DNA from: Octopus vulgaris
Taxonomy: Eukaryota
DNA: 64,000 nt
Reading direction: 5' to 3'
Assembly (NCBI GenBank): GCA_951406725.2
Contig: OX597842.1
Location: forward strand, 29,016,001-29,080,000
Shown here: positions 1,550 to 64,000 of the stretch, one piece after another
Numbering within the stretch: the first letter of the stretch is position 1
Layout: each line of letters begins with the position of its first letter
Program-made: the position numbers and the translations under genes
The notes under the pieces: generated by a model
What the model was told of the DNA's origin: nothing
The model's input: the letters and a program-made list of their open reading frames with translations, nothing else
Database searches by the model: none

Positions 1550-3278
1550 ATCATCATCATCGTCATCGTTTAACATCCGTTATCCATGCTGGCATGGGTT
1601 GGACGGCTCGACTAGGGTCTGGGAAGCCAGGAGGCTGCACCAGGCTCCAGTCCGATCTGGCAGTTTCTACAGCTGGATGCCCTTCCTAATGCCAACCACT
1701 CCATGAGTGTAGTGGGTGCTTTTTACGTGCCACCAACAGAGGAGGCTGGTAATGGCCACGATCGGTTGGTGCTTTTCACTTGACACTGACACAGAATCCA
1801 GTCAAGGCGGTGCTGTCATCAGCCACATTCGGATGGTGCTTTTTATGTGCCACTGGCATGGGTATCACGACTACAATTTCCATTTGATTTTCATTTTGAT
1901 GTTGATGTACTTGACTCAGTAGGTCTTCTCAAGCACAGCATGTTGCCCTACGATCCAAGGTACTTTTGAGTGAGCTGGGGCTGGTTCTGTAAAACTGGTG
2001 TGGGATACAGCCGTGAACTCACTTTATTTGCTGGGTCTTTGCAGTCACAGCATATCTCCAGAGGTCTTGGTCTTTCGTCATTGCCTCTGTGAGGCCCAAC
2101 ATTCGAAGGTCATGCTTGACCACCTCATCCCATATCTTCCTGGGTCTACTTCTACCCTGGATTCCTTCAGCTGTTTGAGAGTGGCACTTCACACAGCTCT
2201 CCTCATCCATCTGTTGTACATGACCATACCAGTGCAAACGTCTCTTTTGCACGCCACATCCAATGCTTCTTATGTCCAGCATTTCTCTCAGGGCACTTAC
2301 ACTCTGTTGTGTGTGCACACTGACATTACACATCCAGCGGATCATGCTAGCTTCATTTCTTTTGAGCCTACGCATGTTCTCAGCAGTCATGGCCCATGTT
2401 TCACTGCCGGGAAGCATGGCAGTTCGCACACATGCATTGTACAATCTACCTTCCACTCTGAGCGAGAGGCCCTTTGTCACCAGTAGGGGTAGAAGCTTTC
2501 TGAACTTTGCCCAGGCTATTCTTATTCTAGTGGTAACACTCTCTGAGCACCTGCCTCCACTACTAACTTGGCCACCCAGGTAGCGGAAGCTATCAACTAC
2601 TTCTAGTTTCTTCCCCTGGAGTGTAATGGAATCTGTTTTCTGAGTATCAATGGTGTCTATTGCCCCTGTGCATCTGCTGCACACAAAAGCTATCTTCTCG
2701 GTTAATTTTCCTTTGATATTGCTGCACCTCTTATGTGTCCATAGCTTACACTGGGTACATCTTATGGAGTTTCTACCTACACCTTTTCTACAGATTGAGC
2801 AAGGCCACCTACCTGAAGGGGTGTGTGGTGAGTTTGCCTTCCTACTTACTAGAACTTTGGTCTTTGCTACATTGACCCTAACACCTTTTGATTCTAAACC
2901 TTGCTTCCACACCTGAAATTTCTTCTCTAGTTATGGTAGTAATTCTGCTATGAGGGCCAGGTCATCAGCATAGAAGAGCTCCCAAGGGCAACCTGTCTTG
3001 AATTCCTCTGCTATTGCCTGGGGGACTATGATGAATAAAAGGGGACTGAGGGCTAATCCTTAGTGGACCCCTACTTCTAACCGGAATTCTTCACTATACT
3101 CATTGCCAATTCTAACCTTACTAATGACCTCTCTGTATAGGACCTGTACAGCCCTTATTAACCATTAGTCAATCCCCAGTTTCTGCATCGCCCACCTGAT
3201 AAGGGATTGCGGGACCCTGTGAAAGGCTTTCTCCAAGTCCATAATAGCTATGTATACGGGTTTATCTTTGGCTACATT
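1549..3278 (-). mobile_element. RTE-clade LINE, 3' portion (RT C-terminus and 3'UTR), decayed
   Basis: ORF 2019-2912: VNVAKTKVL..LEVVDSFRYLG..RIRIAWAKFRKL..GSETWA..RRLHWYGHV..GRSRPRKIW; ..YADDLAL motif upstream; (GAT)n tail at 1549. Confidence 0.92.
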
Positions 3279-3293
3279 AGTGTTGCAGATTTC

Positions 3294-3330
<37 letters not shown>

Positions 3331-3331
<1 letters not shown>

Positions 3332-3738
3332 TCTTTTACTCTTTTACTTGTTTCAGTCATTTGACTGTGGCCATGCTGGAGCACCACCTTTAATCGAGCA
3401 AATCGACCCCGGGACTTATTCTTTTTGTAAGCCCAGTACTTATTCTATCGGTCTCTTTTGCCGAACCACTAAGTAACGGGGACATAAACACACCAGCATC
3501 TGTTGTCAAGCAATGCTAGGGGGACAAACACAGACACACACACACACACACACGCTTATATATATATATATATATATATATACGACGTGCTTCTTTCAGT
3601 TTCCGTCCACCAAATCCACTCACAAGGCTTTCGTCGGCCCGAGGCTATAGCAGAAGACACCTGCCCAAGGTGCCATGCAGTGGGACTGAACCAGGAACCA
3701 TGTGGTTGGTAAACAAGCTACTTACCACACAGCCACTC
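3331..3738 (-). mobile_element. tRNA-derived SINE family A; other copies about 297-435, 1090-1215, 5682-6080, 16323-16670, 18008-18752, 19958-20297, 21498-21865
   Basis: Minus-strand head TGGCTGTGTGG (A box) ... GGTTCAGTCCC (B box), CCTTGGGCAAGTG core-like segment, internal microsatellite, conserved tail. Confidence 0.88.
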
Positions 3739-3741
3739 ATA

Positions 3742-4010
3742 TATACAAAATAAGAAAATGGAGAAATACATCGAAATCAAATATCAATTACCAGATAATA
3801 CCCAATCACATACTTTAGTAAACCACCACAAAAGAAACTTTAAGGTCATTACTGCTTTATGTACACTCCTTTATGTACACTATTTTGTTCTACTTTATTA
3901 TGTTTGTCCTTAAAGTTTCTTATGTGGTGGTTTAATAAAGTATGTGAGTGGGTATTATCTGGTAATCGATATTTGATTTGGATGTATTTCTCCATTTTCT
4001 TATTTTGTAT
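3742..4010. repeat. Inverted repeat (about 100-bp arms); same family as 40491-40620
   Basis: atacaaaataagaaaatggag...ctttaagg mirrored by ccttaaag...cttattttgtat. Confidence 0.8.
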
Positions 4011-4194
4011 TATGAATTTGTGGTAAAACATTTTACCTTTGCCCATATAATACAGTAAATGAATTAATTGCATCGCAATTCTTAACATTTATGTATTAAC
4101 TTTGTTGGGTGCTTCACTTGCAGTATATTGGATATATGTTATCCCATGGAGGGTTGCATTTACAACCCCTATCTCAATTTGTATATATATATAT

Positions 4195-4389
4195 TGTTTA
4201 TCGCTCGAAGATTGATCGTTATTTCTAAAGGGCCAATCAAACAAGTCCATTTTCTTTAAAGGTGTAGCGTTTGTAAGAGTCTAGATTGAATTGATATATC
4301 GGTTCCATTCTAGCAAAAACTGTCTCTGAATGGCAACGAGAAACTCAGAGTAACAGATTTTGTTGAATTTTCTGCAGCTTTAAATAAAG
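4195..4389 (+). mobile_element. Single-arm fragment of the same PLE family with a decayed hammerhead (4315-4361)
   Basis: Near-identical to about 63212-63409; core mutated to CTCTGA; next to (TA)n. Confidence 0.75.
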
Positions 4390-4445
4390 TATATATATAT
4401 ATATATATATATACATACATATGTATGTATGTATATATATGTATG

Positions 4446-4575
<130 letters not shown>

Positions 4576-4581
4576 TGTGTG

Positions 4582-4635
<54 letters not shown>

Positions 4636-4649
4636 TGTATATATATATG

Positions 4650-4698
<49 letters not shown>

Positions 4699-6084
4699 TA
4701 CATGTATATAAATTAGAGAAGAACCACCATGTAGCAATTCAACAATGATATACTTAAATCATACCATAGAGAAAAAAATTAAAGATACGATAAAACATTT
4801 ACCTAGAACTAAATAAAGTAGAAAATAATTAATAAATAGTATATAATTAGTGAGGATGTGTTTCAGTTTTCATTTGTGAATGTATGTTTATGCACATGTA
4901 ATATATTATATATATGTAGTGGATTTGGCAAGCATGAAGTGGATTCGATCCACCACAGCCAAATTTAAATTAACAATGCAACAGAAGATAGAGATATAAG
5001 CACAGTTATATGTGCAGCCTAAGAACAAGCATTAAGGACTAACTGTGTCAAGTGCAGAATAGACAACAACAACAACAACAGTAGCAGCAGCAGCAACAAA
5101 TACAATAACAGCAGCAGCAACAGCAACAGCAACATGGTTAGCAAAATAATTTGAAATTTTTCTTTTTTTCGTTGCCATTTTGGGTTTTTTTGAAAGGGAG
5201 CGAGGGTGGGGCAGGAGCAGGTGTAGGGCTGGCGGGGTTCGTTTTGCAGAAAGATCAACTCCTTGATATTGAAATGACAAAGTTGACCTTTCGGTGACCT
5301 TTGCAGAGGTCAATTTAACAGTTTAATAGAGAAGATGGCAACTGGGAGAATATGATTGAACAAGTTTTATACACACTGCACTTATGTTACATCATTAGCT
5401 GTGTGTATGTGTGTGCATATATATATATGTGTGTATTATGTGTGTGTATATGTGTGTGTGTGTCTGTATATGTATGTGTGTGTGTGTCTGTATATGTATA
5501 TATGTGTGTGTGCATATATATGTGTGTGTATATATATGTATATGTGTATGTGCGTGTGTGAGTATATACGTGTGCGTGTGTCTGTATATATATATGTGTG
5601 TGTGTGTGCGCATGTATGCATATGTATATGTGTGTGTATCTGCATATGTATATATGTGTGTGTGTATGTATATATGTGTATACTCTTTTATTTGTTTCAG
5701 TCATTTGACTGTGGCCATGCTGGGGCACCACCTTTAATCAAGCAACTCGACCCCAGGACTTATTCTTTTGTAAGCCCAGTACTTATTTTATCGGTCTCTT
5801 TTGCCGAACAGCTAGGTAACGGGGACATAAACACACCAGCATCGGTTGTCAAGCGATTCTAGGGGGACAAACACAGACACACAAACACACCCACGCATAT
5901 ATATATACATATATACGACGGGCTTCTTTCAGTTTCCGTCTACCAAATCCACTCACATGACTTTGGTTGGCCCAAGGCTATAGTAGAAGACACTTGCCCA
6001 AGGTTCCACACAGTGGGACTGAACCCAGAACCATGTGGTTGGTAAGCAAGCTACTTACCACACAGCCACTCCTGCACCTATATA

Positions 6085-6405
6085 AAAAGGAGCACTCTGT
6101 CAGTTACGACGACGGGGGTCCCAGCTGATCCGATCAACGGAACAGCCTGCTTTGCTTGTTAGATTCCATGCAAGTGACTGAGTACTCCACAGACACATGG
6201 ACCCCTTTACATAATTCTCAGGGAGATTCAGTGTGACAAGCCTGGCCCTTTGAATTGCTGGTACAACTCATTTTTGCCAGCTGAGTGGACTGGAGCAACG
6301 TGAAATAAAGTGTCTTGCTCAAGGACAGAACACATCGCCAGGAATTGAACTCACGACCTTACGATCATGATCTGAATGTCCTGACCACTAAGCCATGTGA
6401 CTTCA
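6085..6405 (-). mobile_element. tRNA-derived SINE family D; related heads about 46760-46870 and 31270-31375
   Basis: Minus-strand TGGCTTAGTGG..GAGTTCAATTCC..CCTTGAGCAAGACACTTTATTTCAC. Confidence 0.65.
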
Positions 6406-6770
6406 CTAAAGAAAAAATGTGTGTGTGGAGGTGCAATGGCCCAGTGGTTTGGGCAACGGACTCACAGTCGGATCAGATTGCGGTTTCAATATGTGTGTGT
6501 GTGCGTGTATGTACACATATTGATATGTGTTTAGGTGTATATATATGTATGTCAAACATTGAATGGTCAACCACCTGTTCTTTTAGAAACCCAAGGGAGT
6601 GCCAAGTGAAGAATGGCCACAACATTTTCTTTATATTTTTATTTTTATATTTTATTTTTTTCCCTTTCTTTCTTTCTCATTTTCAAGAACACACAGTACA
6701 TGTATGAATGTTTATGAAAATGTACACACACAATAGGTTCCTCCATGTGTGTATATATGTGAGTGTATGT

Positions 6771-6821
<51 letters not shown>

Positions 6822-6916
6822 TATAAGTTAATCCAAACAAGAAAGCACAAGAAAACACAACAACGCGAGGACGTGGAACAAGTATAGTGTTATTGGACGC
6901 TCAGGAAAGAAGGAGG

Positions 6917-6951
6917 GTTTAACGTTTCAAGCGGAGCTCTTCGTCGGAAAC
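6917..6951 (-). ncRNA. Minimal hammerhead motif within a PLE-like remnant (about 6820-6975)
   Basis: Minus strand GTTT-CCGACGA-A-GAGC(TCC)GCTT-GAAACGTT-AAAC; stem I GTTT/AAAC, palindromic AACGTT; next to (TA)n. Confidence 0.55.
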
Positions 6952-7292
6952 ATAGGAGAAGGAAAGATCCAGGTACATAGCAACACACCTACTATTGAAA
7001 AACAAACCCTCTTTTTCCTTCTCTCTTTCCATTTCTTACAAGGGTCATCCAAAAAATACAAAAACACCCAAAAAAAGAAAAAAGAGAAAAATACACAGTT
7101 TTAAAACACACACACTCACATTCTCTCTCTTTCACCTTCTCCATCCCTCTATCTCCCTATCACTCCCTCTCTCTCTGTTTCACCTTCTCCCTCCCTCTAT
7201 TCCCCATTATATACACACACACACACACTCTCTCTCTCTCTCCCCACTTCATTTACCAATAATATAAAAACAGGCAAAACTTTTAAAACTGA

Positions 7293-7335
7293 CATTTCTG
7301 ATGAAACTACAGGAGTAGTTGAAAGCGTTGATATG
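7293..7335 (+). ncRNA. Minimal hammerhead motif, unrelated family
   Basis: CTGATGA-AACTAC(AGGA)GTAGTT-GAAA-GCG-TT with a perfect 6-bp stem II; stem I weak. Confidence 0.55.
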
Positions 7336-7364
7336 AAGTAATAATATGTGATATATAAATAAAT

Positions 7365-7672
7365 GTGGAGGCGCAATGGCCCAGTGGTTAGGGCAGCGGA
7401 CTCGCGGTCATAGGATCACGGTTTCGATTCCTAGACTAGGCTTTGTGAGTGTTTATTGAGCGAAAACACCTAAAGCTTCATGAGGCTCCAGCAGGGGCTG
7501 GTGGTGATCCCTGCTGTACTCTTTCGCCGCATTTTTCTCTCACTCTTTCTTCTGTTGGCCTGCTTGCTTAGCCAGTGGGGTGGCGTCATTTAAAGGCTAA
7601 AACAATGCGAAACGCATTGTGACCAGCGATGTGTAGCAACATCTGATAGCCTGGTCGGTCACAGTGATCACG
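7365..7672 (+). mobile_element. tRNA-derived SINE family B; inverted copy 21195-21488, fragments about 6425-6490 and 50520-50775
   Basis: TGGCCCAGTGG A box, GTTTCGATTCC B box, body shared with the reverse complement of 21195-21488. Confidence 0.85.
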
Positions 7673-7775
7673 TTGATATATATATGAATATATATTTTCA
7701 CAACCATCCAGCATTCTGAACATCTTTTTTCTTTCATATATATTAAATCTGTACATCACCCCCAATACTTCTAAT

Positions 7776-7824
<49 letters not shown>

Positions 7825-9209
7825 AGGTAATGGTGTCATTGAGACCCAAAGTCGTCAGGTAATGCTGAATAAGTGCCATAGACTGACCATAGTTAAGTTC
7901 CAGGTTCAGTGATTTGGGGAATAAGGGGTTCAACGTTGGTCATCTGTCAGTGTGTGTAAATAAGAATTTTTTGCGTAATGCGATAAAAAACCAAGTCTGT
8001 GTAGATATTAGAACATTTATAGATAGAAGGTCTTACACCTGTTTCCAGGATATTTATTAATTATATTCCTTCATTGGAGATGATGTGGGAGGATTGTTAA
8101 TTAATAGTTAATTTAGATAGGATACAAAATAGAGAGTGAGGTGGAGGAAAGAAAATAGATGTGAGATATGTAGGGGTATTGAATTTGTAGATCCCTTTTT
8201 TAGGCAGAATGGTAGATATGTAAGATTCCAATACTTTGTGAGAAAAATCCAGCAGTATTTAAAATTGTTTATTCCAAGTATAAAGTTTATACACAATGTA
8301 AGATTCCAATACCTTATGAGTAAGATTCAACAGTATTTAAAAGTGGTCATTCCAAGTACAGAATTTATACACTATGGTTTTTTTAATATCATTATGCAAA
8401 AAATTCTTATATATATATACATATACATATATATAAAAGTAATCAATTTAATGTCAGATTATAGAGTGATCAATGGTTCTGCATTCACAAAGCATTTGTA
8501 GATGCAAAACATTTGGTCACTCTATGACTGGACTTCAACTCAATAACTTCAATAAATTACTGCCCAATGTTTACACACACACAAACATATATATACATAT
8601 ATAAATTTTACTTTCAATAGCTAGAAGTGAGACATACTTCTGATGACCCCCACACACACATATAACTCCATCCCCAACCTCTTGACACCTTCCATACATC
8701 ATCTCTTACTTTGTGAGGGTTTTTCCCCTTGCATCTTCTCACCAACATCTTATTTTCATCCCAGATGCTCCCATCCACTCTTAGGTAAAAGTATGTTAAC
8801 TGTGTATCTTCCCTATAGCAAAACATTTCTTCCTCGGTGCAAAATCACATCCCAGGCCCTTTATTAAACTCTCTCCTCCCACTTAGCGAAGAGAACTGCT
8901 TTTTCTTTCTCCTATTTTTTCATATCTTACAAGTTACTTGTCAACCCCTCACTGGTGCTGGTAGTAAGAAACAAGCCCCCAGTGCACACTGCGAAGTCGT
9001 TAGCGCTAGGAAGGGCATCCAGCTGTGGAAACAATAGCAAAGTTGACATGTATTGATGAGGAATATGAGGGAGGGAAGGAGAAAGCAGGAAGGAAAGACG
9101 AATGGATGGATGGTTGGACGTGTACGTACATAGATAAATGTACACGGACATTCTTAAGTACAGACAAACATGTTTATATCACTTTTAATTAAACTGCGAC
9201 CATCCCGAA

Positions 9210-10694
9210 GTATCAGCTCGTAGGTTCCGTTCAGGAATGGAACACCAGAACTTATTTTTCGTTTGGTAGTTATAGTGTTGGAGTCTTTCGTTGCAGGAAT
9301 GTAAACAAACTAACAATGGTTTTCGAACACTTATGGGAGAAACACACACGCGTCTCCATCCCACCTCGCTCCATCATCACTGTCTGACAAGTTTTGTTGG
9401 TTTCTTTCCGTACCTGACGCTTTGGGGGTTCGGTAACAGGATAGCGTAAAAGAAGCAACAGACACGAAAAGAAGAAGTCAGTTTCTAGTTTTCTATCTTT
9501 TGTCCTCATTCGGATTGTTTGTTTGTTTTATTACAATTCACATTTTCAGAAAGTAATTATAGCAATAAAAATCATAGAATTTACCACTTGAGTTTTAGCA
9601 TCAGACAATTGTGGAATAATATAAGGTTTACAAAGGTCGGATATTTAGTTCGTTTCGTTGACATTCCGTGTCGCTTTTCTGAAGTGTCCTTAACTTATAT
9701 TTCCCGCGAAATCCAATCCTTCGGGTGATTAACGTTAATCCACATTAAACTGGATTTATTTATCATAAGAGGTAAGATATAACACATTTCTTTAATAAAA
9801 GCCAATGAACCCGGCTACTTGACAGTGAAAGTATTAAATATTGCTAGTCTGACATCGATATAAATTCTTTAATTAGGCGAATAAAATCTAAATTGTATTT
9901 TCTTTGGTATTGCCACGAAAAAGCACCAAATTTTTAATTTCTTTTATTACAGTAAATATTCCATTTGCTAATTGTCCCCATCCAAAGCCGTCTATTGTTT
10001 TATCTTAAAATTATCACTTGCTACATATCTCTGCTGTTTTTCTCACAAAATGATCCACGTTAATAGTTTAAATGTTTTTTTCTCCGTTGCAATCGTCTTG
10101 ATTGCTCTCATATATATAATCAATTAATCCCAATTATAGATTGTATATTCTAATTAAAGTGTTTGGTTGTTCGCTGGAATTGAGCGGATTAGCAAACGTC
10201 GCTTTGTTGTTCCTGTGACTGGTCAGAAGCGTGACAAAGCGACATTGCTTCCACTAATTGAAAAATACATCAAACCTGGCTCAGTTATGTACAGTGATTC
10301 TTGGACGGCTTCCAAAGATATACAAACGTTGGGTTCTTAGCATTACATGATAAACCATAAAGAAAACTTTGTTGACAGCATACATGCACCCGGCGATTTT
10401 TAATAGCCTAGTATTCCTTCAAACTATCTACCCCTGTACCTGGCCAATTATTTATTTATCTCTGCTAGAGAAAAATGAATGATGCTGCACCAATTTTTTT
10501 AGCTTATATTTTGACTTCGTTACCCATTAAAAGAATTGCATTATGTTTTTAACGTATCTCTCTGTTTTTATATAATATATTGCGTGTGTAGGCATGTATA
10601 AATTTATATATAGAGAGAGATTTTAAAAGTGTGCCCTATATATGGTTTTCTTACCTGGCAACCCTATCCAAACGTGTCCCTTATGAGCCGATAC
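9210..10694 (+). mobile_element. Merlin (IS1016/ISXO2-like) DNA transposon remnant; transposase fragment about 10161-10380
   Basis: VWLFAGIERISKRRFVVPV..RDKATLLPLIEKYIKPGSVMYSDSW..*HYMINHKENFVD; imperfect inverted ends GTATCAGCTCGTA / TATGAGCCGATAC. Confidence 0.7.
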
Positions 10695-10839
10695 AATTGA
10701 TGATACAGCATAGAATTCACACTTGATCAATGTTTGATAAAAGTTACACATTTCTCCAAACTAATCTACAATAAATGTTTGTCTTGAAGTTTTATAATTT
10801 GATGACATTTTTTAATATACAAAATACCTGATATTACAA

Positions 10840-11198
10840 AAGATAACTCTGAGCACCTTTTCAAACTCCACCTGTCTAACACCCGTGGACAGAAAACAGC
10901 ACAGCTCCCATGACTTTCAGAAACATTTTTTCATGCTAAGAGTTGCTGAAGCATGGAGCAAACTGCCAGCATCAGTTGTTAGTTGTTGGAGCACTGCATC
11001 CTTCAAAACTTCCATGCTTCCTGAGATTTGCCAACACTACACTTGATTTTCTCCTCTCCATACACATGCATGTATGTATCTGACTCGTACACTGTTCACT
11101 TCCCAGACATTTGTACATTACAGCATATACTTTATATGCACTGTCTGACAAGTTATGGTGCACCTGAGCACTGTATACAATAATTTCATTATTATTAT
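10840..11198 (+). mobile_element. CR1-like LINE 3' end with (ATT)n tail
   Basis: NTRG..FFMLRVAEAWSKLPASVV..SFK motif and 3'UTR. Confidence 0.6.
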
Positions 11199-11529
11199 AG
11201 ATGCTAAGATAGAGTGATGAGAGATAAACGAAGGGATAAGTTTGTTCATTAAATGCTAATGATGGTGGTTATCTAATGAATACGTGATGGAGCCATTGAG
11301 TAGATGGTAGCCATGTGAGAGGGAATGTGTGGAAAATGTATTTCCTAGTCACTGATAAAATGTTAAAATATAACAATGGTAGGAAATACTTGACAGAAGG
11401 TCTTCATTGACAAAACCCCACAGAGGCAAGTCTTTTGCTCCCTAACTTGTTACATTCTACCACCTATTTCTAAGTTAGCACTCGCTCTCCACTCCACATT
11501 TCACAGCATCTATTTCCTTGTATTTATTG

Positions 11530-12460
11530 CACATGTACATCTCCTACTTTTCGTGTTGACGTTCCTCTAATATTGCTGCACATCTTATGTATCCATAACT
11601 TGCACTGGCTACACCTTATCGAGTTCCTGCATATTCCTTTTCCATATTTCAAGCAGGGCCATTTCCCTGTAAGATTTCTCTGCTTACTAACTTACTGAGT
11701 CTTTGGTCTCTGTTAAATTAACTCTAAGGCCCACTAATTGCAGACCCTGCTTACACACCTGAAATTTCTTTTCTCTTGCTGGTATTGATTCAGGTGTAAG
11801 ATGATCAGCATAGAGGGTCTCACAGGGGCAGCCCAGTATATGTGTGTGTGTGTGTGTGTGTCTGTATTGTGGTTAGTGACTAAATTATAGTGATGTTTAT
11901 GTTTGATCTGTAGTGGGTGCTTTCTCAAGGCACTTTGACCTCTCATAGATACATTCACGCAGCAGAGAAACGATATTCTTGTGAAATATTTGTCTAAAAG
12001 GATTGCACAACATTTACTGAATCTTGAGTCTGTGTGCTGCCCCAGATTCCTGAATTCTGTTCTCATCACCTTCTTCTAAGTAAAATGCATTTGACCTCAT
12101 CTATTTTCTGTACATTTCTTGTGTTTATTGCACGTGTACATCTCCCACACACAAAGACTATTTTCCATGTTGACATTCCTCTAACATTGCAGCACCTCTT
12201 ATGTGTACGTGGCTTGCATGAGGTACACCTGATGGAGTTTCTACTTTTGCCTCTTCCACATGTGAAGCAGGGCCACTTCCCTGAAAGGATTTGTTTGCTT
12301 TCAAACTTATTAAGACTCTAGTCTTTGTTCCATGAAATATAAGTTCCACAAATTGCAGTTCTTGCTTCCATACCTGAAATTTCTTTTCTCATGCCATTAT
12401 TTATTCAGCTAAAACAAGAAGGCAATCAACATAGAGGGGCTCCCAGGGGCCTCCCAACAT
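11530..12460 (-). mobile_element. Two older RTE fragments (about 11530-11840 and 12100-12460)
   Basis: Degenerate similarity to 2690-3000 (WPC..C, HKRC, KTRVL). Confidence 0.65.
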
Positions 12461-13921: not shown

Positions 13922-14418
13922 ATACCGGAGTAAACACATAAATGTGAAACAAGGTGGAAAAAAGAGTACTCAAATACCAGTGGTAGAGTAATATGCTTTA
14001 TTTAAAGCAGCAGAAAATTCCACAAAACCTGTTACTCTGAGTTTCTCGTTGCCGTTCATCAGACAGTTTTTGTTAGAATGGAACCGATATATCAATTCAA
14101 TCCAGACTCTTGCAAACGCTACACCTTTACAAAATGGACTTGTTTGATTGGCCCTTTAGAAATAACGGTCAATCTTCGAGCGTTAAACAAAAATGAGCTC
14201 AAAAATATATATGTATATATACATAAAAATTATAAATATAAGATTGACCATTATTTCTAAAGGGCCAATCAAACAAGTCCATTTTTTAAAGGTGTAGCGT
14301 TTGCAAGAGTCTGGATTGAATTGATATATCGGTTCCATTCTAACAAAAACTGTCTGATGAACGGCAACGAGAAACCCAGAGTAACAGATTTTGTTGAATT
14401 TTCTGCTGCTTTTAAAGT
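13922..14418 (-). mobile_element. Short palindromic copy of the same PLE family, with two hammerhead motifs (14024-14071 minus, 14345-14392 plus)
   Basis: 13922-14180 matches the reverse complement of about 63220-63481; inverted arm about 14240-14418; bounded by (TA)n. Confidence 0.8.
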
Positions 14419-42868: not shown

Positions 42869-44732
42869 GTATTATGTAAAGGCAAAACTACACAATTGTG
42901 CCCCAGGCGAATGTTTCCTTGTAACTTCTAGAAAAAGGGATGTTTTTCAATGAAATTTCTTTCCCAAATATCCTTCAGATGGCAAATATTCCAATTATAT
43001 CGGAATTTGTTGTAAGAAAAACCTTTTCGGTGGGTGGAGAGAAAAATTTAGGAAAGTTCCCCCGAGTCGGCTTTGTTTCCAAAATAATAGATATTTTCAA
43101 ATGAAATTTTCAATAAAACCGTTTCAGATGGTGAAGATTTCGATTATATCGGAATTTAATATGAAGAATATTTTAAAAATTGGTGGATTCGCACAGATAT
43201 ACACTGACACAAAACAGAAAATAAGAAGATGAACTTTGGGAAAATAACCGTGATGTGTGTCAGTATGTATGTGTGCGAAACCATCAAATTTTTAAAGTTT
43301 TTTCATGTTAAATTCCGATATAATCCTAATCTACACCATTTGAAAGGGATTTGTAGAAATTTTCACAGAAACAAAATATCCACTTTTCTGAAAGTTATAG
43401 AAAAACAAAACGGATTTGGGTGAATTTTGAGAAAGTCAACTCCTCAACGTTTGAAAATTTGTTTTTACAACAATTTCCGATATAATTGGAATCTTCATCA
43501 TCTGAAGCATTTTTGTCAAAGAAATTTCATTAAAAAATATCAATTTGTCTCAAAGTTATAAGGAAACAAATTCGTCGTGGGGCCCAGTTGTGTAGGTATG
43601 CCTATACATATGGACGCATATATATATATATGTTAATAAAATATATGCATATATATAAACATATATGTACGTACCTACCTCTACATGTACATATACACGC
43701 ATATATGTGTACAGGACACCAAAAGGACGTCGAACACATAGAGAGACGAAAAACATAGACACAAACCAAGGAACAAGACAAGCAAAAAAAGGAAATACAG
43801 GACAATAAGCACAACGAAAAATCCCCTTCTTCAGTCGCTAAAGTTTCATCTACTAAACGTTTCGAAGGATAAAAGCGAGACGTATACTTCGAATGAAAAA
43901 TTCCTTCCCGCGAAAAGCAAATCAATTAAAATTCTGAGATCTTGTCGCAGAGGGGTAAAAAAAAAAGGCAAGACGGTAACGACAGTACAAACATATAAAC
44001 AGTAAAATATATATATAAACAGTGGAAAAATAAATATATAACAGTGAGAGACAGGACAAGGAGAACAAGATAAGAAGGGCTGTTAACGCCAGACATATAT
44101 ATATATATATGCTTTATTTTAAGCAGCAGAAAATTCAACGTACATATATATATCACCGGTATATATCGCTAGTTGAAATGTCAAAGTCAATAATATTATA
44201 CAGGTGTGTATGTGTATATATATATATTTATATATATATATATGCATGTATGTGTATGTATGTATATAGAGAGACAGACAGACAGAGAAATATGAGCCAC
44301 TGAAATACGTATAATCGTTAATACACAGTAAACAAATGTGTACGTGTGTGTGTATACTCATATTAATAGGTGAGGGTATAAAGTATAAATATTTTTATCC
44401 CAGCGAGTGTACAATACAAAACAAGGATTAAGTACCGTTGTTAGTATCTACATATTTGGTATACATTGAAAAATGTATTGTAACCCTTTTGCGAAAGATG
44501 GAATGTCTGAAAATTATAGACAAACTAATTGATAGCAGATTTCTCATCAATCTAAAAGAAAAACAACAGCAGCAGCACGTCGTAATTGGCGGGAAAACTA
44601 CGTCTGCAAATGTAATGTTGTCATAGCAACAGACTATGCAAGAGAAAGTTTGTTGTTAAGGGCAACGAGGCGTATTTTTACCGCCAAAGGAAACAGTAAA
44701 GTATAGCGGTCATATAACACACAAATATTTAT

Positions 44733-54999: not shown

Positions 55000-55790
55000 C
55001 ATGATGCATTGAGGTTGAAATCCCTCTTTTCATTCCAAATTTTTCACCAGAATGATTGTAGAGTTTCTCGGGAGGGAACTTTCTTAATGGTAATGTTTTC
55101 CTTCCTTGTCTCTCTCTATAATGCTTGTGGGTTGGAAGCAAACTCACGATTGATATTGGCTTGTTCAAAAATTTGCATGTGATAGCAAAGTTTCTCGCTT
55201 GTCGTCCTGAGTTCATGTTTTAAAGATTTTTGAGAAGCCTAATTTCTGAAGATTGGTATTTAGGCAGTATGTTCCATATCCACAGGGCCCCAATAACTAC
55301 AGGTATAAGCCTGAACTTGTAATCTGGATAGATTAACTGCAGATTTCTCAATAGTTCAATGTAGGTATTCTCTTTTTCACTCATCTTCAGATTTATGTTA
55401 ACATCTGTTGGGCAGCTAATTTCCACAACTCTACACAGTTTCTCTCCTCTATCCCAAATCATTATATCAGGTCTTTTGTGCTTACATTTTACTGAGGTCT
55501 TCACTGGGACATTCCACCAGTGGCTATGGTTTCTACTGTACTATGGGTTCTTATTTCTTTGTCCGCAGGGTTATCCTTGACAGATTTCATTATAGAGTGT
55601 CCTTGCTACAACATCATGTCTCATTGGTAGAGAACCGTGATGACATTTTTGGACAATGACGTGTGATGTGGCTGATATCGTCAGTGTTAATTCCACAAAG
55701 TAGGTGTCGGTTGCCATATTTTACTGCTTCTCCTGCATCTCTACCCCTTTTGCGCATCAGATTGATATTTCCTGGAGGTAGTTACCTGGC
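55000..55790 (-). mobile_element. R4/Dong-like (RLE) LINE C-terminal fragment
   Basis: Zn-knuckle remnant, HDVVAR, then KRPDIMIWD..VVEISCP..KENTY.EL..IPVVIGAL restriction-like endonuclease. Confidence 0.8.
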
Positions 55791-57197: not shown

Positions 57198-58380
57198 ACA
57201 CCCGCTCAGGTAGGTGGCCCTGCTCGATTTGTAGAAAAGGTGTAGGTAGAAACTCCATAAGATGTACCCAGTGTAAACTATCGACACATAAGAGGTGCAG
57301 CAACATCAAAGGAAGGTTGACCATAAAGATAGCTTCCATGTGAGGCAGATGCACGGGGGCAATAGACAGCACAGATACTCAGAAAACAGATTCCATCACA
57401 CTCCAGGGCAAGAAACTAGAAGTAGTAGATAGCTTCCACTACCTACGTGTGCAAGTTAGTAGTGGGGGTGGATGCTCAGAGAGCGTCACCACTAGAATAA
57501 GAATAGCCTGGGCAAAGTTTAGAAAGCTCCTACCCGTACTGGCGACAAAGGGTCTCTCGCTCAGAGTGAAAGGTAGATTGTACGATGCATGTGTGCGAAT
57601 TGCCATGCTTTACAGCAGTGAAACATGGGCTGTGATTATGGAGGACGTGTAGGCTTGAAAGAAATGAAGCTAGCATGATCCGCTGGATGTGTAATGTCAG
57701 TGTGCATGCACGACAGAGTGTAAGCGTCCTGAGAGAAATGTTGGAGATAAGAAGCATCGGATATGGCGTACAGGAGAGACATTTGTATTGGTATGGTCAT
57801 GTACTACGGATGGATAAGGAAAGATGTGTGAAGAAGTGCCACTCCCAAACTAGGGTAGAGGTAGACCCAGGAAGACATGGTAAAAAGTGGTCAAGCATGA
57901 CCTTCGAATGTTGGGCCTCACACAGGCAATGACAAAAGACCAAGACCTCTGGAGATATGCTGTGACTGCGAAGACCTGACAAATAAAGTGAATTCATGGC
58001 TTGCAGGACGGCCTGCTGTGCTTACCTTGGATCGTAGGGTGACCTGCAGTGCTCGAGGAGACCAACTGAGTCAAGTACATCAACATCAAAATAAAAATCA
58101 AATGGAAATTGTAGTTCGGATACCCATGCCAGTGGCACGTAAAAAGCACCAACCGATCGTGGACATTGCCACCCTCCTCTGGCACCTGTGCCGGTGGAAC
58201 GTAAATTCACCACAAAACTCATGGAGTGGTTGGCGTTAGGAAGAGCATCCAGCTGTAGAAACACTGCCAGATCAGACAGTTTGACAGGGGTCTGGGAAGC
58301 TGATCCTGGCTTCCCAGACCCCGGTTGATCCGTCTAACCAATGCTAGCATGGAAAACGGACGATACACGATGATGATGAT
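57198..58380 (+). mobile_element. RTE-clade LINE, 5'-truncated second copy of the same family
   Basis: SGRWPCSICRKGVGRNSIRCTQC..RIRIAWAKFRKL with stops and frameshifts; same 3'UTR and (GAT)n tail. Confidence 0.92.
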
Positions 58381-60912: not shown

Positions 60913-61074
<162 letters not shown>

Positions 61075-61086
61075 TGGAGTAAGCAC

Positions 61087-61133
61087 AAAACTGTCTGACA
61101 AACGGGAACGTGAAACTCTGAGTAACAGCTTTT
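61087..61133 (+). ncRNA. Variant hammerhead motif of a sister subfamily (core G8 to A)
   Basis: ctgt-CTGACAA-ACG(GGAA)CGT-GAAA-CTC(T)GAG-TA-acag; changes fall in loops or restore stem II. Confidence 0.6.
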
Positions 61134-61160
61134 GTTATATTTCTTCTGCTTTTAAATAAA

Positions 61161-61194
<34 letters not shown>

Positions 61195-61221
61195 TTTATG
61201 TTAAGCAGCAGAAAATTCAAC

Positions 61222-61269
61222 AAAATCTGTTACTCTGAGTTTCTCGTTGCCGTTCATCAGACAGTTTTT
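61222..61269 (-). ncRNA. Minimal type I hammerhead ribozyme motif (inverted-arm copy)
   Basis: Reverse complement of 63334-63381. Confidence 0.72.
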
Positions 61270-63333
61270 GCTAGAATGGAGCTGATATATCAATTCAATC
61301 TAGACTCTTACAAACGCTACACCTTTAAAAAGAAATGGACTTGTTTGATTGGCCCTTTAGAAAAAAACGGTCAATCTTCGAGCGATAAACAAAAAGGTCA
61401 AAAATATATGTATATATATAAAAAAGCTTATAAAAAATTATAAAATCCGAGGAAAAAACCTTACATTGAATAAAATACATATTGACATTAATGAAGAAAG
61501 TATAAATTAATTCATAGGAATTAAACCTGTTATAAATATTACACTGCAATACATATTTTTATTAAAATGTGCATATATATATCAACATACACAAAAAGGA
61601 TGCGCGCCAACGCCATACATATACAGACGTATGAATATAAATCTAAATATACACATAAATGCATGTGTACATATATTCACGCAAAACCATCTCGCACGCA
61701 AGTTAAAAATCATGTATGTAGCGATTCTCATATACTGAGTAAGGGGGGAACGAAAGAAAAGAAGAGAGAGAAAAAGGAACGAAGGAGGGGTGGGGAAAAA
61801 AACGAAATAAGAAAAAATTATGTATACAATCTGTGTAACGGCGTTATTGGCATATATGGAGACAAGTATACAAACAAGTTCGTATGGATACATATATACA
61901 GTCGTGTATATGTGTGCTTAAGCACAAACATACTCTCACTTACACATACACAGATACGCATGCTTACAAATACATATCCTCGGCTATACACATACTTATA
62001 TCAACATTTTAATTTTGACAACATTGCTTTTTTTGAAAATAACATTGCTTTTTTTAAAAGAATGGGTGCATTAATAAAAATATATACGAAAGACATATAA
62101 AATAAAATATAACACCCTATTTTGGATCATTTATAAATAATCAAGGTAATATAAATAATCAAGGTAATCCTATACAAGAAGTGAGCTAATGAACTTATGT
62201 AGGCACGCGGCTAAATTTAAAATGTCGAATATAAATATACCATATGGATAGAGTATATATTTTGTATTTTTGATCTTTGAAATTTTGATTTTGACTCTTG
62301 AACGATGAGCGCTACAATGGATTTTGTTTTCCAAGCTATGCGGATCTTAATCCGTATAGCAAAGTCTTGTGTTTCTACATATACATCAGGAAAAAACCTT
62401 CGACCCTGTTTTCAGGTTACTGTATTGTATAGGATTACCTTGATTATTTATATTACCTTGATTATTTATAAATGATCCAAAATAGGGTGTTATATTTTAT
62501 TTTATATGTCTTTCGTATATATTTTTATTAATGCACCCATTCTTTTAAAAAAAGCAATGTTTTTTTCAAAAAAAGCAATGTTGTCAAAATTAAAATGTTG
62601 ATATAAGTATGTGTATAGCCGAGGATATGTATTTGTAAGCATGCGTATCTGTGTATGTGTAAGTGAGAGTATGTTTGTGCTTAAGCACACATATACACGA
62701 CTGTATATATGTATCCATACGAACTTGTTTGTATACTTGTCTCCATATATGCCAATAACGCCGTTACACAGATTGTATACATAATTTTTTCTTATTTCGT
62801 TTTTTTCCCCACCCCTCCTTCGTTCCTTTTTCTCTCTCTTCTTTTCTTTCGTTCCCCCCCTTACTCAGTATATGAGAATCGCTACATACATGATTTTTAA
62901 CTTGCGTGCGAGATGGTTTTGCGTGAATATATGTACACATGCATTTATGTGTATATTTAGATTTATATTCATACGTCTGTATATGTATGGCGTTGGCGCG
63001 CATCCTTTTTGTGTATGTTGATATATATATGCACATTTTAATAAAAATATGTATTGCAGTGTAATATTTATAACAGGTTTAATTCCTATGAATTAATTTA
63101 TACTTTCTTCATTAATGTCAATATGTATTTTATTCAATGTAAGGTTTTTTCCTCGGATTTTATAATTTTTTATAAGCTTTTTTATATATATACATATATT
63201 TTTGACCTTTTTGTTTATCGCTCGAAGATTGACCGTTTTTTTCTAAAGGGCCAATCAAACAAGTCCATTTCTTTTTAAAGGTGTAGCGTTTGTAAGAGTC
63301 TAGATTGAATTGATATATCAGTTCCATTCTAGC

Positions 63334-63381
63334 AAAAACTGTCTGATGAACGGCAACGAGAAACTCAGAGTAACAGATTTT
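63334..63381 (+). ncRNA. Minimal type I hammerhead ribozyme motif
   Basis: ctgt-CTGATGA-aCG(GCAA)CGa-GAAA-CTC(A)GAG-TA-acag: stem I CTGT/ACAG, GNRA-capped short stem II, stem III ACTC/GAGT, GUA site. Confidence 0.72.
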
Positions 63382-63480
63382 GTTGAATTTTCTGCTGCTT
63401 AAAATAAAGCATATTACTCTACCACTGGTATTTGAGTACTCTTTCTTCCATCTTGTTTCACATTTATGTGTTTACTCCGG

Positions 63481-63532
<52 letters not shown>

Positions 63533-63579: not shown

Positions 63580-63870
63580 GAGAGAGAAGGAAACAATGAT
63601 AATCCGTGAGTTGGGGGTGTAAAGAAGGTTTTCCGAAATTAAGGGAACCAAAGTTTCGGGCTTTAATGACTATCAATAGATAGTGTGTCTTGTGTTTGCT
63701 TCAGACCAAATAAATTCAGATTTATGGATTAGATAATGACTCTAGACCGAAATACAATCATAATACTCTCCAAGGAGATTGTTGAAGGCATGCTGCCCTA
63801 ACTGCTGTTCACTGATGAAAACAAATTTCACATTGAATAGACTGTGAACCAGCAAAATGGCCAGCCTTGG
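63580..63870 (+). mobile_element. Decayed Tc1/maT-like transposase fragment
   Basis: LLFTDENKFHIE*TVNQQN resembles the first catalytic-Asp motif. Confidence 0.4.
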
Positions 63871-64000
63871 AGTGTACCTGGATCCATCGGGGTTCGATTG
63901 GTAATTTGATGTCAAAATCCACTCGGATATTCCCCTCGTTATTTTGAGATATATTGTATTGAAGTTCGTTTTGGGATTCTTGTGTTGTTTTTTATGTATG

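Follow-up and report, generated by a model that had tools for sequence, protein, structure and literature searches.

A probable Hydra-like, head-to-head Penelope-like insertion in (TA)n of Octopus vulgaris and its possible origin from two primed strands

Inverted copies in described Penelope-like elements

In L1 twin priming, both target strands prime reverse transcription, leading to an inversion that is joined at microhomology and whose two parts do not overlap. Among Penelope-like elements (PLEs), the layout with an inverted 5′-truncated copy and a tail has already been described, according to the available text of Craig 2021 (PMC8557442) and Arkhipova 2013 (PMC3846280), and the origin of PLE inversions is named as an open question by Craig et al. 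(PMC8557442). Penelope-13_HM, a Repbase entry from Hydra magnipapillata, bears an inverted 5′-truncated copy of 966 nt at its 5′ end and one hammerhead per strand. A sequence-only reading of the octopus locus treated here took pLTR hammerheads and inverted 5′ segments in truncated PLE copies as established. As compared by table rows, this 3045-nt entry retains more of the ORF than the octopus insertion and differs from it in hammerhead sequence and host (PMC8557442). In Poseidon PAc from Anolis carolinensis (Frangieh et al. 2024, PMC11167929), two 3′ ends are separated by a tail, the target is AT-rich and the pLTR contains a hammerhead, as in the octopus family, whereas PAc belongs to another clade and carries its tail within the start of the ORF. 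In the Poseidon clade, a protein cuts both strands and extends them from two start sites that bound the tail, and the available portion of the PAc study offers no model for inverted insertions (PMC11167929). The minimal PLE hammerheads of Cervera and de la Pena (2014, PMC4209133) are of type I with a small palindromic helix III, as here; in contrast, helix II of the octopus motif has 2 bp and lacks the G10.1-C11.1 pair, and opposite-strand pairs of minimal hammerheads in Schistosoma lie 100-700 bp apart, compared with ~2.1 kb in the octopus insertion.

Elements of the Hydra clade (Craig 2021) resemble the octopus family in a CxH followed by KF, a type I hammerhead near the 3′ end and a palindromic stem III, and they also have in common with it a (TA)n target and an aquatic invertebrate host; nearly all Hydra families insert in (TA)n (PMC8557442). 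Hydra-2_aMil has the same hammerhead stems I and III as the octopus family (PMC8557442, file S2). Identity with Hydra-1_Obim was considered and rejected because that element has another hammerhead and a short UTR (PMC8557442), compared with a UTR of ~1.1 kb in the octopus family, in which stem II has 2 bp and the tail 72 nt; tails of 30-40 nt are given for published PLEs in the descriptions available. When four DNA motifs of the family were compared with the available part of the Craig 2021 supplement, three were unmatched and the fourth matched an unrelated Chlamys sequence. In O. vulgaris, 190 PLE families together occupy 6.83% of the genome, and recent insertions are recorded for 31 of them (PMC13282606). 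With PLEs abundant in this genome and the inverted layout published, the insertion is ordinary as an object, and its family may already be catalogued in Repbase or in the library of PMC13282606. A literature search, mostly of openly accessible papers, found no description of the octopus family or of a two-primer or twin-priming PLE insertion.

Anatomy and clade placement of the octopus insertion

The window is the whole 64-kb stretch of O. vulgaris DNA that was analyzed, and all positions refer to it. The insertion occupies 61194-63482, and arm alignment places its inverted arms at 61194-62177 (984 nt) and 62425-63409 (985 nt), separated by a spacer of 247 nt. The arms differ by 3 substitutions (61200/63403, 61281/63322 and 62040/62562) and one 1-nt indel, an extra base in a C-run near 62860, which bears out both the near-identity and the spacer length that had been reported from the letters. 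The arms are two 5′-truncated copies of the element's 3′ part. The longer copy (62178..63482, + strand) comprises the end of an ORF, ~1.1 kb of 3′ untranslated/pLTR region, a hammerhead and a tail, and the shorter inverted copy (61194..62177, − strand) is 5′-truncated at the position that equals 62425 and has a tail-less AAAG end beside (TA)n. The sequence-only reading had spoken of a foldback PLE; the Penelope-like nature and the inverted 5′-truncated copy stand, but the arms are not the terminal repeats of a special foldback element. Encoding neither RT nor endonuclease, the insertion is most likely a passive by-product.

A (TA)16 tract (61162..61193), which is common to an older short copy, abuts the left arm, and a (TA)22 tract (63485..63528, by sequence reading) forms the target on the right, where the element extends 72-73 nt past the arm to 63481/63482, its last TA being common to the microsatellite. 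The one-sided extension of 72 bp to (TA)n noted earlier is thus recovered, and target-site duplications are unreadable within (TA)n. At the inversion junction (62176..62177), the end of the left arm and the colinear family sequence have a 2-nt (AA) microhomology: family contigs from four public runs match from 62176, with differing letters before it, and the arm ends at 62177, hence the overlap. The spacer also contains the hairpin that had been claimed for it, a stable 11-bp structure in the family's untranslated region (62335..62360, + strand) that lies away from both inversion junctions and has a folding energy of −16.7 kcal/mol (z −5.9; 0 of 200 shuffles equally good). A tandem duplication of ~17-18 nt was observed near the 5′ ends of both arms (62134-62167 and 62435-62468), and, by eye, the right flank at 63780-64000 looks like a decayed Tc1/mariner transposase fragment.

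The reading frame at the start of the spacer, RSELMNLCRHAAKFKMSNINIPYG followed by a stop, represents the last 24 codons and the stop of an ORF (62177..62251, + strand), the first of these codons starting on the final base of the left arm, 62177. The stub ends in E-x4-C-x-H-x2-K-F, a Hydra-type C-terminus, with the CxH placed after a conserved E and N as is characteristic of the Hydra clade; the PLE identity that had been claimed for the spacer accords with this ORF end. This pattern, which was composed after both the stub and the Hydra rows had been viewed, has no further match in any of the six frames of the window and a single one in 200 shuffles, and it fits 7 of 9 Hydra rows in fig. S7 of Craig 2021, the other rows being gapped and the figure text being without layout (PMC8557442). 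The 24-codon stub had no match in Pfam. Contigs of all four public runs extend upstream of 62176 with identical differing letters, which in the frame of the stub, by eye, contain no stop and end in Leu-Asn-Gln, compared with Leu-Asn-Lys before the same Arg-Ser-Glu in Hydra-2_Amil; therefore, the ORF continues in other copies. Because the insertion holds only the last 24 codons, without an RT or endonuclease core, and no master copy was recovered, the clade placement draws on one short motif together with non-coding traits. Among the traits of EN+ PLEs, a tail on one end was found in one arm of both large foldbacks of the window, a 5′-truncated copy lies adjacent to an inverted 5′-truncated copy, and the pLTR hammerhead motif is present; no partial tandem forming direct pLTRs occurs in this truncated insertion. 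The Hydra-clade habit of inserting in (TA)n is seen on both flanks, and all five family loci of the window touch (TA)n. The regions that would hold the single-ORF domains of EN+ PLEs (PLE-type RT and GIY-YIG endonuclease) and the RWK and DKT motifs and CxCX5C linker of the Hydra clade, which has no CCHH, are absent from the insertion. Judged from sequence features, the locus is very probably a Hydra-like head-to-head Penelope-like insertion.

Several other element types were considered and rejected. The Naiad clade has an N-terminal endonuclease and no canonical hammerhead, whereas a canonical-order type I motif is present here and the ORF ends in the endonuclease-type Hydra motif. Non-LTR retrozymes consist of non-coding tandem hammerhead units, whereas this insertion has no head-to-tail units and carries the end of an ORF. 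In foldback DNA transposons and MITEs, terminal inverted repeats define both ends symmetrically; here, the ends are asymmetric, the junctions vary among copies and solo arms exist. Scans with DNA patterns gave 0 matches in viral contigs and prokaryote genomes, and two scans of metagenomes gave 0 matches and 1 match, respectively, the latter (L001) being dismissed as a chance 23-nt match inside a bacterial gene.

Origin and age of the head-to-head arrangement

The further family loci of the window illustrate how its copies are put together. A second head-to-head insertion (13922..14418) consists of a tailed arm running from 14236 to 13922 (− strand) and a tail-less arm running from 14240 to 14418 (+ strand), with 3 nt between them; its arms are set apart by 5 substitutions and one 3-nt deletion over ~176 nt and have letters in common that are absent from other copies. 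A solo tail-less copy lies at 4194-4389. The older neighbor at 61072..61162 is more diverged (79-84% identity) and is composed of a 16-nt inverted tail end (61072-61087), which matches the tail end at 14 of 16 positions (0.02 such matches per shuffled window), and a tail-less piece of ~75 nt whose hammerhead is decayed. These halves derive from non-overlapping parts of the element. In each of the three two-part insertions of the window, a tailed end is combined with a tail-less one. A 33-nt fragment of the tail-less end (44107-44139, − strand) resides inside an intron of an ankyrin-repeat gene; within 44094-44165, TA filler comes after this end, and then CCGGTA(TA)n on the + strand, and this segment may be a minimal two-ended insertion, although it is too short to prove it. 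Outside the window, the octopus family is abundant: 3114-12081 family contigs were found per run, and in each of the four public runs they cover all 30 bins (summed contig depth not being equivalent to copy number). Tail-less ends followed by (TA)n were found in at least 28, 76 and 40 contigs of runs X1, X2 and X3, respectively, among the 24 of 747 loose ends listed.

Both outer ends of the insertion are 3′ ends of the element, one from the inner site and one from the tail end, each lying against (TA)n; two cDNAs, each primed by one of the target strands, would be expected to show this polarity. We lean, with modest conviction, toward reading the locus as a Hydra-like non-coding head-to-head insertion in (TA)n that arose from two cut strands each priming reverse transcription; for the two-primer mechanism taken by itself, the scales tip slightly in favor. 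According to this mechanism, the element's enzyme would cut both DNA strands, and each cut end would prime its own reverse transcription. The top strand of the left flank would prime at AAAG, the tail-less inner start site, and be extended by 984 nt, the bottom strand of the right flank would prime at the tail end and be extended by about 1305 nt, and the two cDNA ends would meet at AA and then be filled in. The parts joined in L1 twin priming do not overlap, whereas the octopus insertion duplicates ~985 nt, so that two passes over the template would be needed. Both templates likely came from one source copy, as two transcripts or as two pLTRs of one tandem transcript, since, at 20 of 20 positions selected because the letter of the window is the minority in family contigs of the public runs, the two arms agree in that letter. 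The two end types also occur independently, as evidenced by the solo tail-less copy and by the tail-less contigs ending in (TA)n. As the halves of 61072-61162 are non-overlapping, they cannot be copies of each other, which favors priming from both target strands. On the other side, the in vitro precedent belongs to another clade (Poseidon), and the support comes from three insertions in one window, the non-overlapping case being a diverged subfamily that rests on 16 nt.

Alternatively, a single cDNA primed at the tail end could have folded back or switched template, copied 984 nt and been trimmed by the endonuclease at the inner site. This rather unlikely route would account for the near-identity of the arms and their common minority letters, and it predicts what is seen in both large foldbacks, that is, a shorter arm nested in the longer one, which counts against priming from two strands. 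Self-priming has been proposed for inverted Penelope structures (PMC3846280), and resolution by the endonuclease has been proposed for the tail (PMC8557442). Yet the junction shows a 2-nt microhomology and no palindrome, the spacer hairpin being 65-160 nt away; moreover, a single cDNA leaves the non-overlapping halves of 61072-61162 unexplained, and the tail-less end that would result from trimming occurs on solo copies too.

The 3 substitutions in 984 nt correspond to an age of 0.42 My (0.09-1.24), and the 14-kb foldback to about 4 My (1.3-9.4), at 0.0036 substitutions per site per My, as used in PMC13282606, and on the presumption that the arms were identical at birth and free of conversion and sequencing error. 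The insertion is thus likely young as judged from arm divergence, and the recent origin that had been proposed for it corresponds to about 0.4 My. Palindromic arms can undergo gene conversion, and an older insertion with homogenized arms would look younger than it is. Such a history would be compatible with the ~23 hand-picked positions at which the copy departs from the majority of family sequences in the public runs. It appears highly improbable, because in 19 of 19 rows the non-majority letters reach a summed depth of at least 500 in at least one run (third letters being pooled, and a single row with two alternatives being omitted); such depth speaks more for a multi-copy subfamily than for private mutations. 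The arms of the 14-kb foldback have also drifted apart, so that conversion is not the rule here.

It was further considered whether the second arm stems from a chimeric foldback read or from a repeat that was joined wrongly. Inverted Penelope structures trouble assemblies (PMC8557442), arm identity is very high, and the locus is known from the assembly alone. Among the 32 longest of 119 contig pieces (4 runs from 4 studies) in a check of the junction region 62130-62225, which covered about 80% of X1 and 76% of X2, none bridges 62177/62178, and the depth of X1 at 62178-62193 is that of the two non-bridging pieces; this absence is as compatible with a private or polymorphic insertion as it is with an artefact, and the contig gap proves nothing. 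In contrast, the mirror stops exactly at the natural tail-less end of the family with the flanks unmirrored, the arms differ by 3 substitutions outside homopolymers, the older second foldback in the window repeats the end pattern, and, among the 12 joints listed for other family contigs, 2 are on opposite strands. An assembly artefact is accordingly hard to credit.

Hammerheads, tail, duplex potential and genomic setting

A strict type I hammerhead descriptor yielded three motifs in the window, with cores at 63343 (+), 61260 (−) and 14062 (−), all of the same family, and 0 matches in 100 shuffled windows. The minimal type I motif at 63339..63376 (+ strand) has a 4-bp stem I, a CUGAUGA core and a 2-bp stem II with a GCAA loop, followed by GAA and a palindromic stem III with a 1-nt loop, and its predicted cut lies after GUA at 63372. 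Arm alignment and the descriptor place an identical, outward-facing hammerhead in the inverted arm (61227..61264, − strand), and the sequence-only reading was accordingly correct in assigning one to each arm. At gathering scores, nothing in Rfam matched. Folded on its own to minimum energy, the motif forms stems I and II and not stem III, and an alignment of six window copies, when folded, showed no two-sided changes and failed to reproduce the hammerhead structure. A U4-to-C change of the core (CCGAUGA) at 63344 accounts for 18-64% of the summed depth of family contigs in the four runs, and the contigs carrying it may constitute a variant-core subfamily. In vitro, minimal PLE hammerheads showed weak activity and depended on dimers (PMC4209133), and the hammerhead of PAc required protein and was dispensable for insertion (PMC11167929).

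The optional tail (63410..63482, + strand, 72-73 nt) occurs on one end only and contains a bulged hairpin at ~63415-63436, in the form of CUC, a short inner stem, a 2-3-nt bulge, GAG and then YACU (UACU in the octopus window). By eye, it resembles the tails of Hydra-2_Amil (coral), Hydra-2_Ajap (sea cucumber) and, partly, Hydra-1_Crog (copepod), whereas the tails of the other three of six Hydra consensi are unlike it. The tail hairpin alone is weak (−5.9 kcal/mol; z −0.14 for the whole tail), and no family variants fall between 63402 and 63444 among the 40 of 44 rows listed. It is tentatively proposed, at somewhat less than even confidence, that a two-ended reaction makes head-to-head insertions and that a conserved bulged tail hairpin RNA places the two start sites. 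The insertion offers a clean, young record of inversion formation, in which the pairing of tailed with tail-less ends and the tail hairpin give testable predictions, and this octopus family, abundant and young, would lend itself to testing whether the tail hairpin places the start sites.

Either strand of the insertion is predicted to fold with about 2140-2148 of 2288 nt paired. A transcript folding into ~1 kb of dsRNA with a sense hammerhead had been suggested; a near-full fold is indeed predicted, but the sense hammerhead is paired along its whole length with the opposite arm in the predicted fold of either strand and is not free, so that the foldback would likely silence its own ribozyme. 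A read-through transcript, if made, would form a ~985-bp duplex that buries its own hammerhead. If such palindromes were often transcribed, they would be a source of long perfect dsRNA in octopus, an animal known for heavy RNA editing. A function as a long-dsRNA source, serving as an ADAR or Dicer substrate and kept for a role in the host or the element, would be compatible with the origin models and would draw on the near-full predicted pairing of either strand, on a possible intronic position and on the small RNAs of Penelope reported in a rotifer (PMC3846280). Such a function seems improbable, given that the structure is a routine product of insertion by this family and that a likely young insertion had little time for co-option. 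Moreover, the 23 positions that differ from the family majority show no A-to-G skew (A>G 3, T>C 4, G>A 5 and C>T 3), and the template is therefore not visibly hyper-edited.

The possible intronic position concerns the gene of an ankyrin-repeat protein with a RING-like segment (22277-46592, − strand), to which protein P0087 (labelled ankyrin-3-like, Octopus vulgaris) maps in nine coding exons; P0087 is matched at 100% identity by an ankyrin exon of the window, and the first codon lies in an exon further upstream, at least one exon upstream of 46592 being unmapped. The insertion lies either ~15 kb upstream of the first mapped ankyrin exon or within an intron. Elsewhere in the window, an ORF fragment at 55220-55540 (− strand), which had no match in Pfam, presumably resembles the restriction-like endonuclease of site-specific LINEs. 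Two related LINE-like ORF fragments, which we take to be of RTE type, were observed at 2019-2930 (− strand) and 57344-57652 (+ strand), the former having a PHD-finger match (Pfam E 2e-5).
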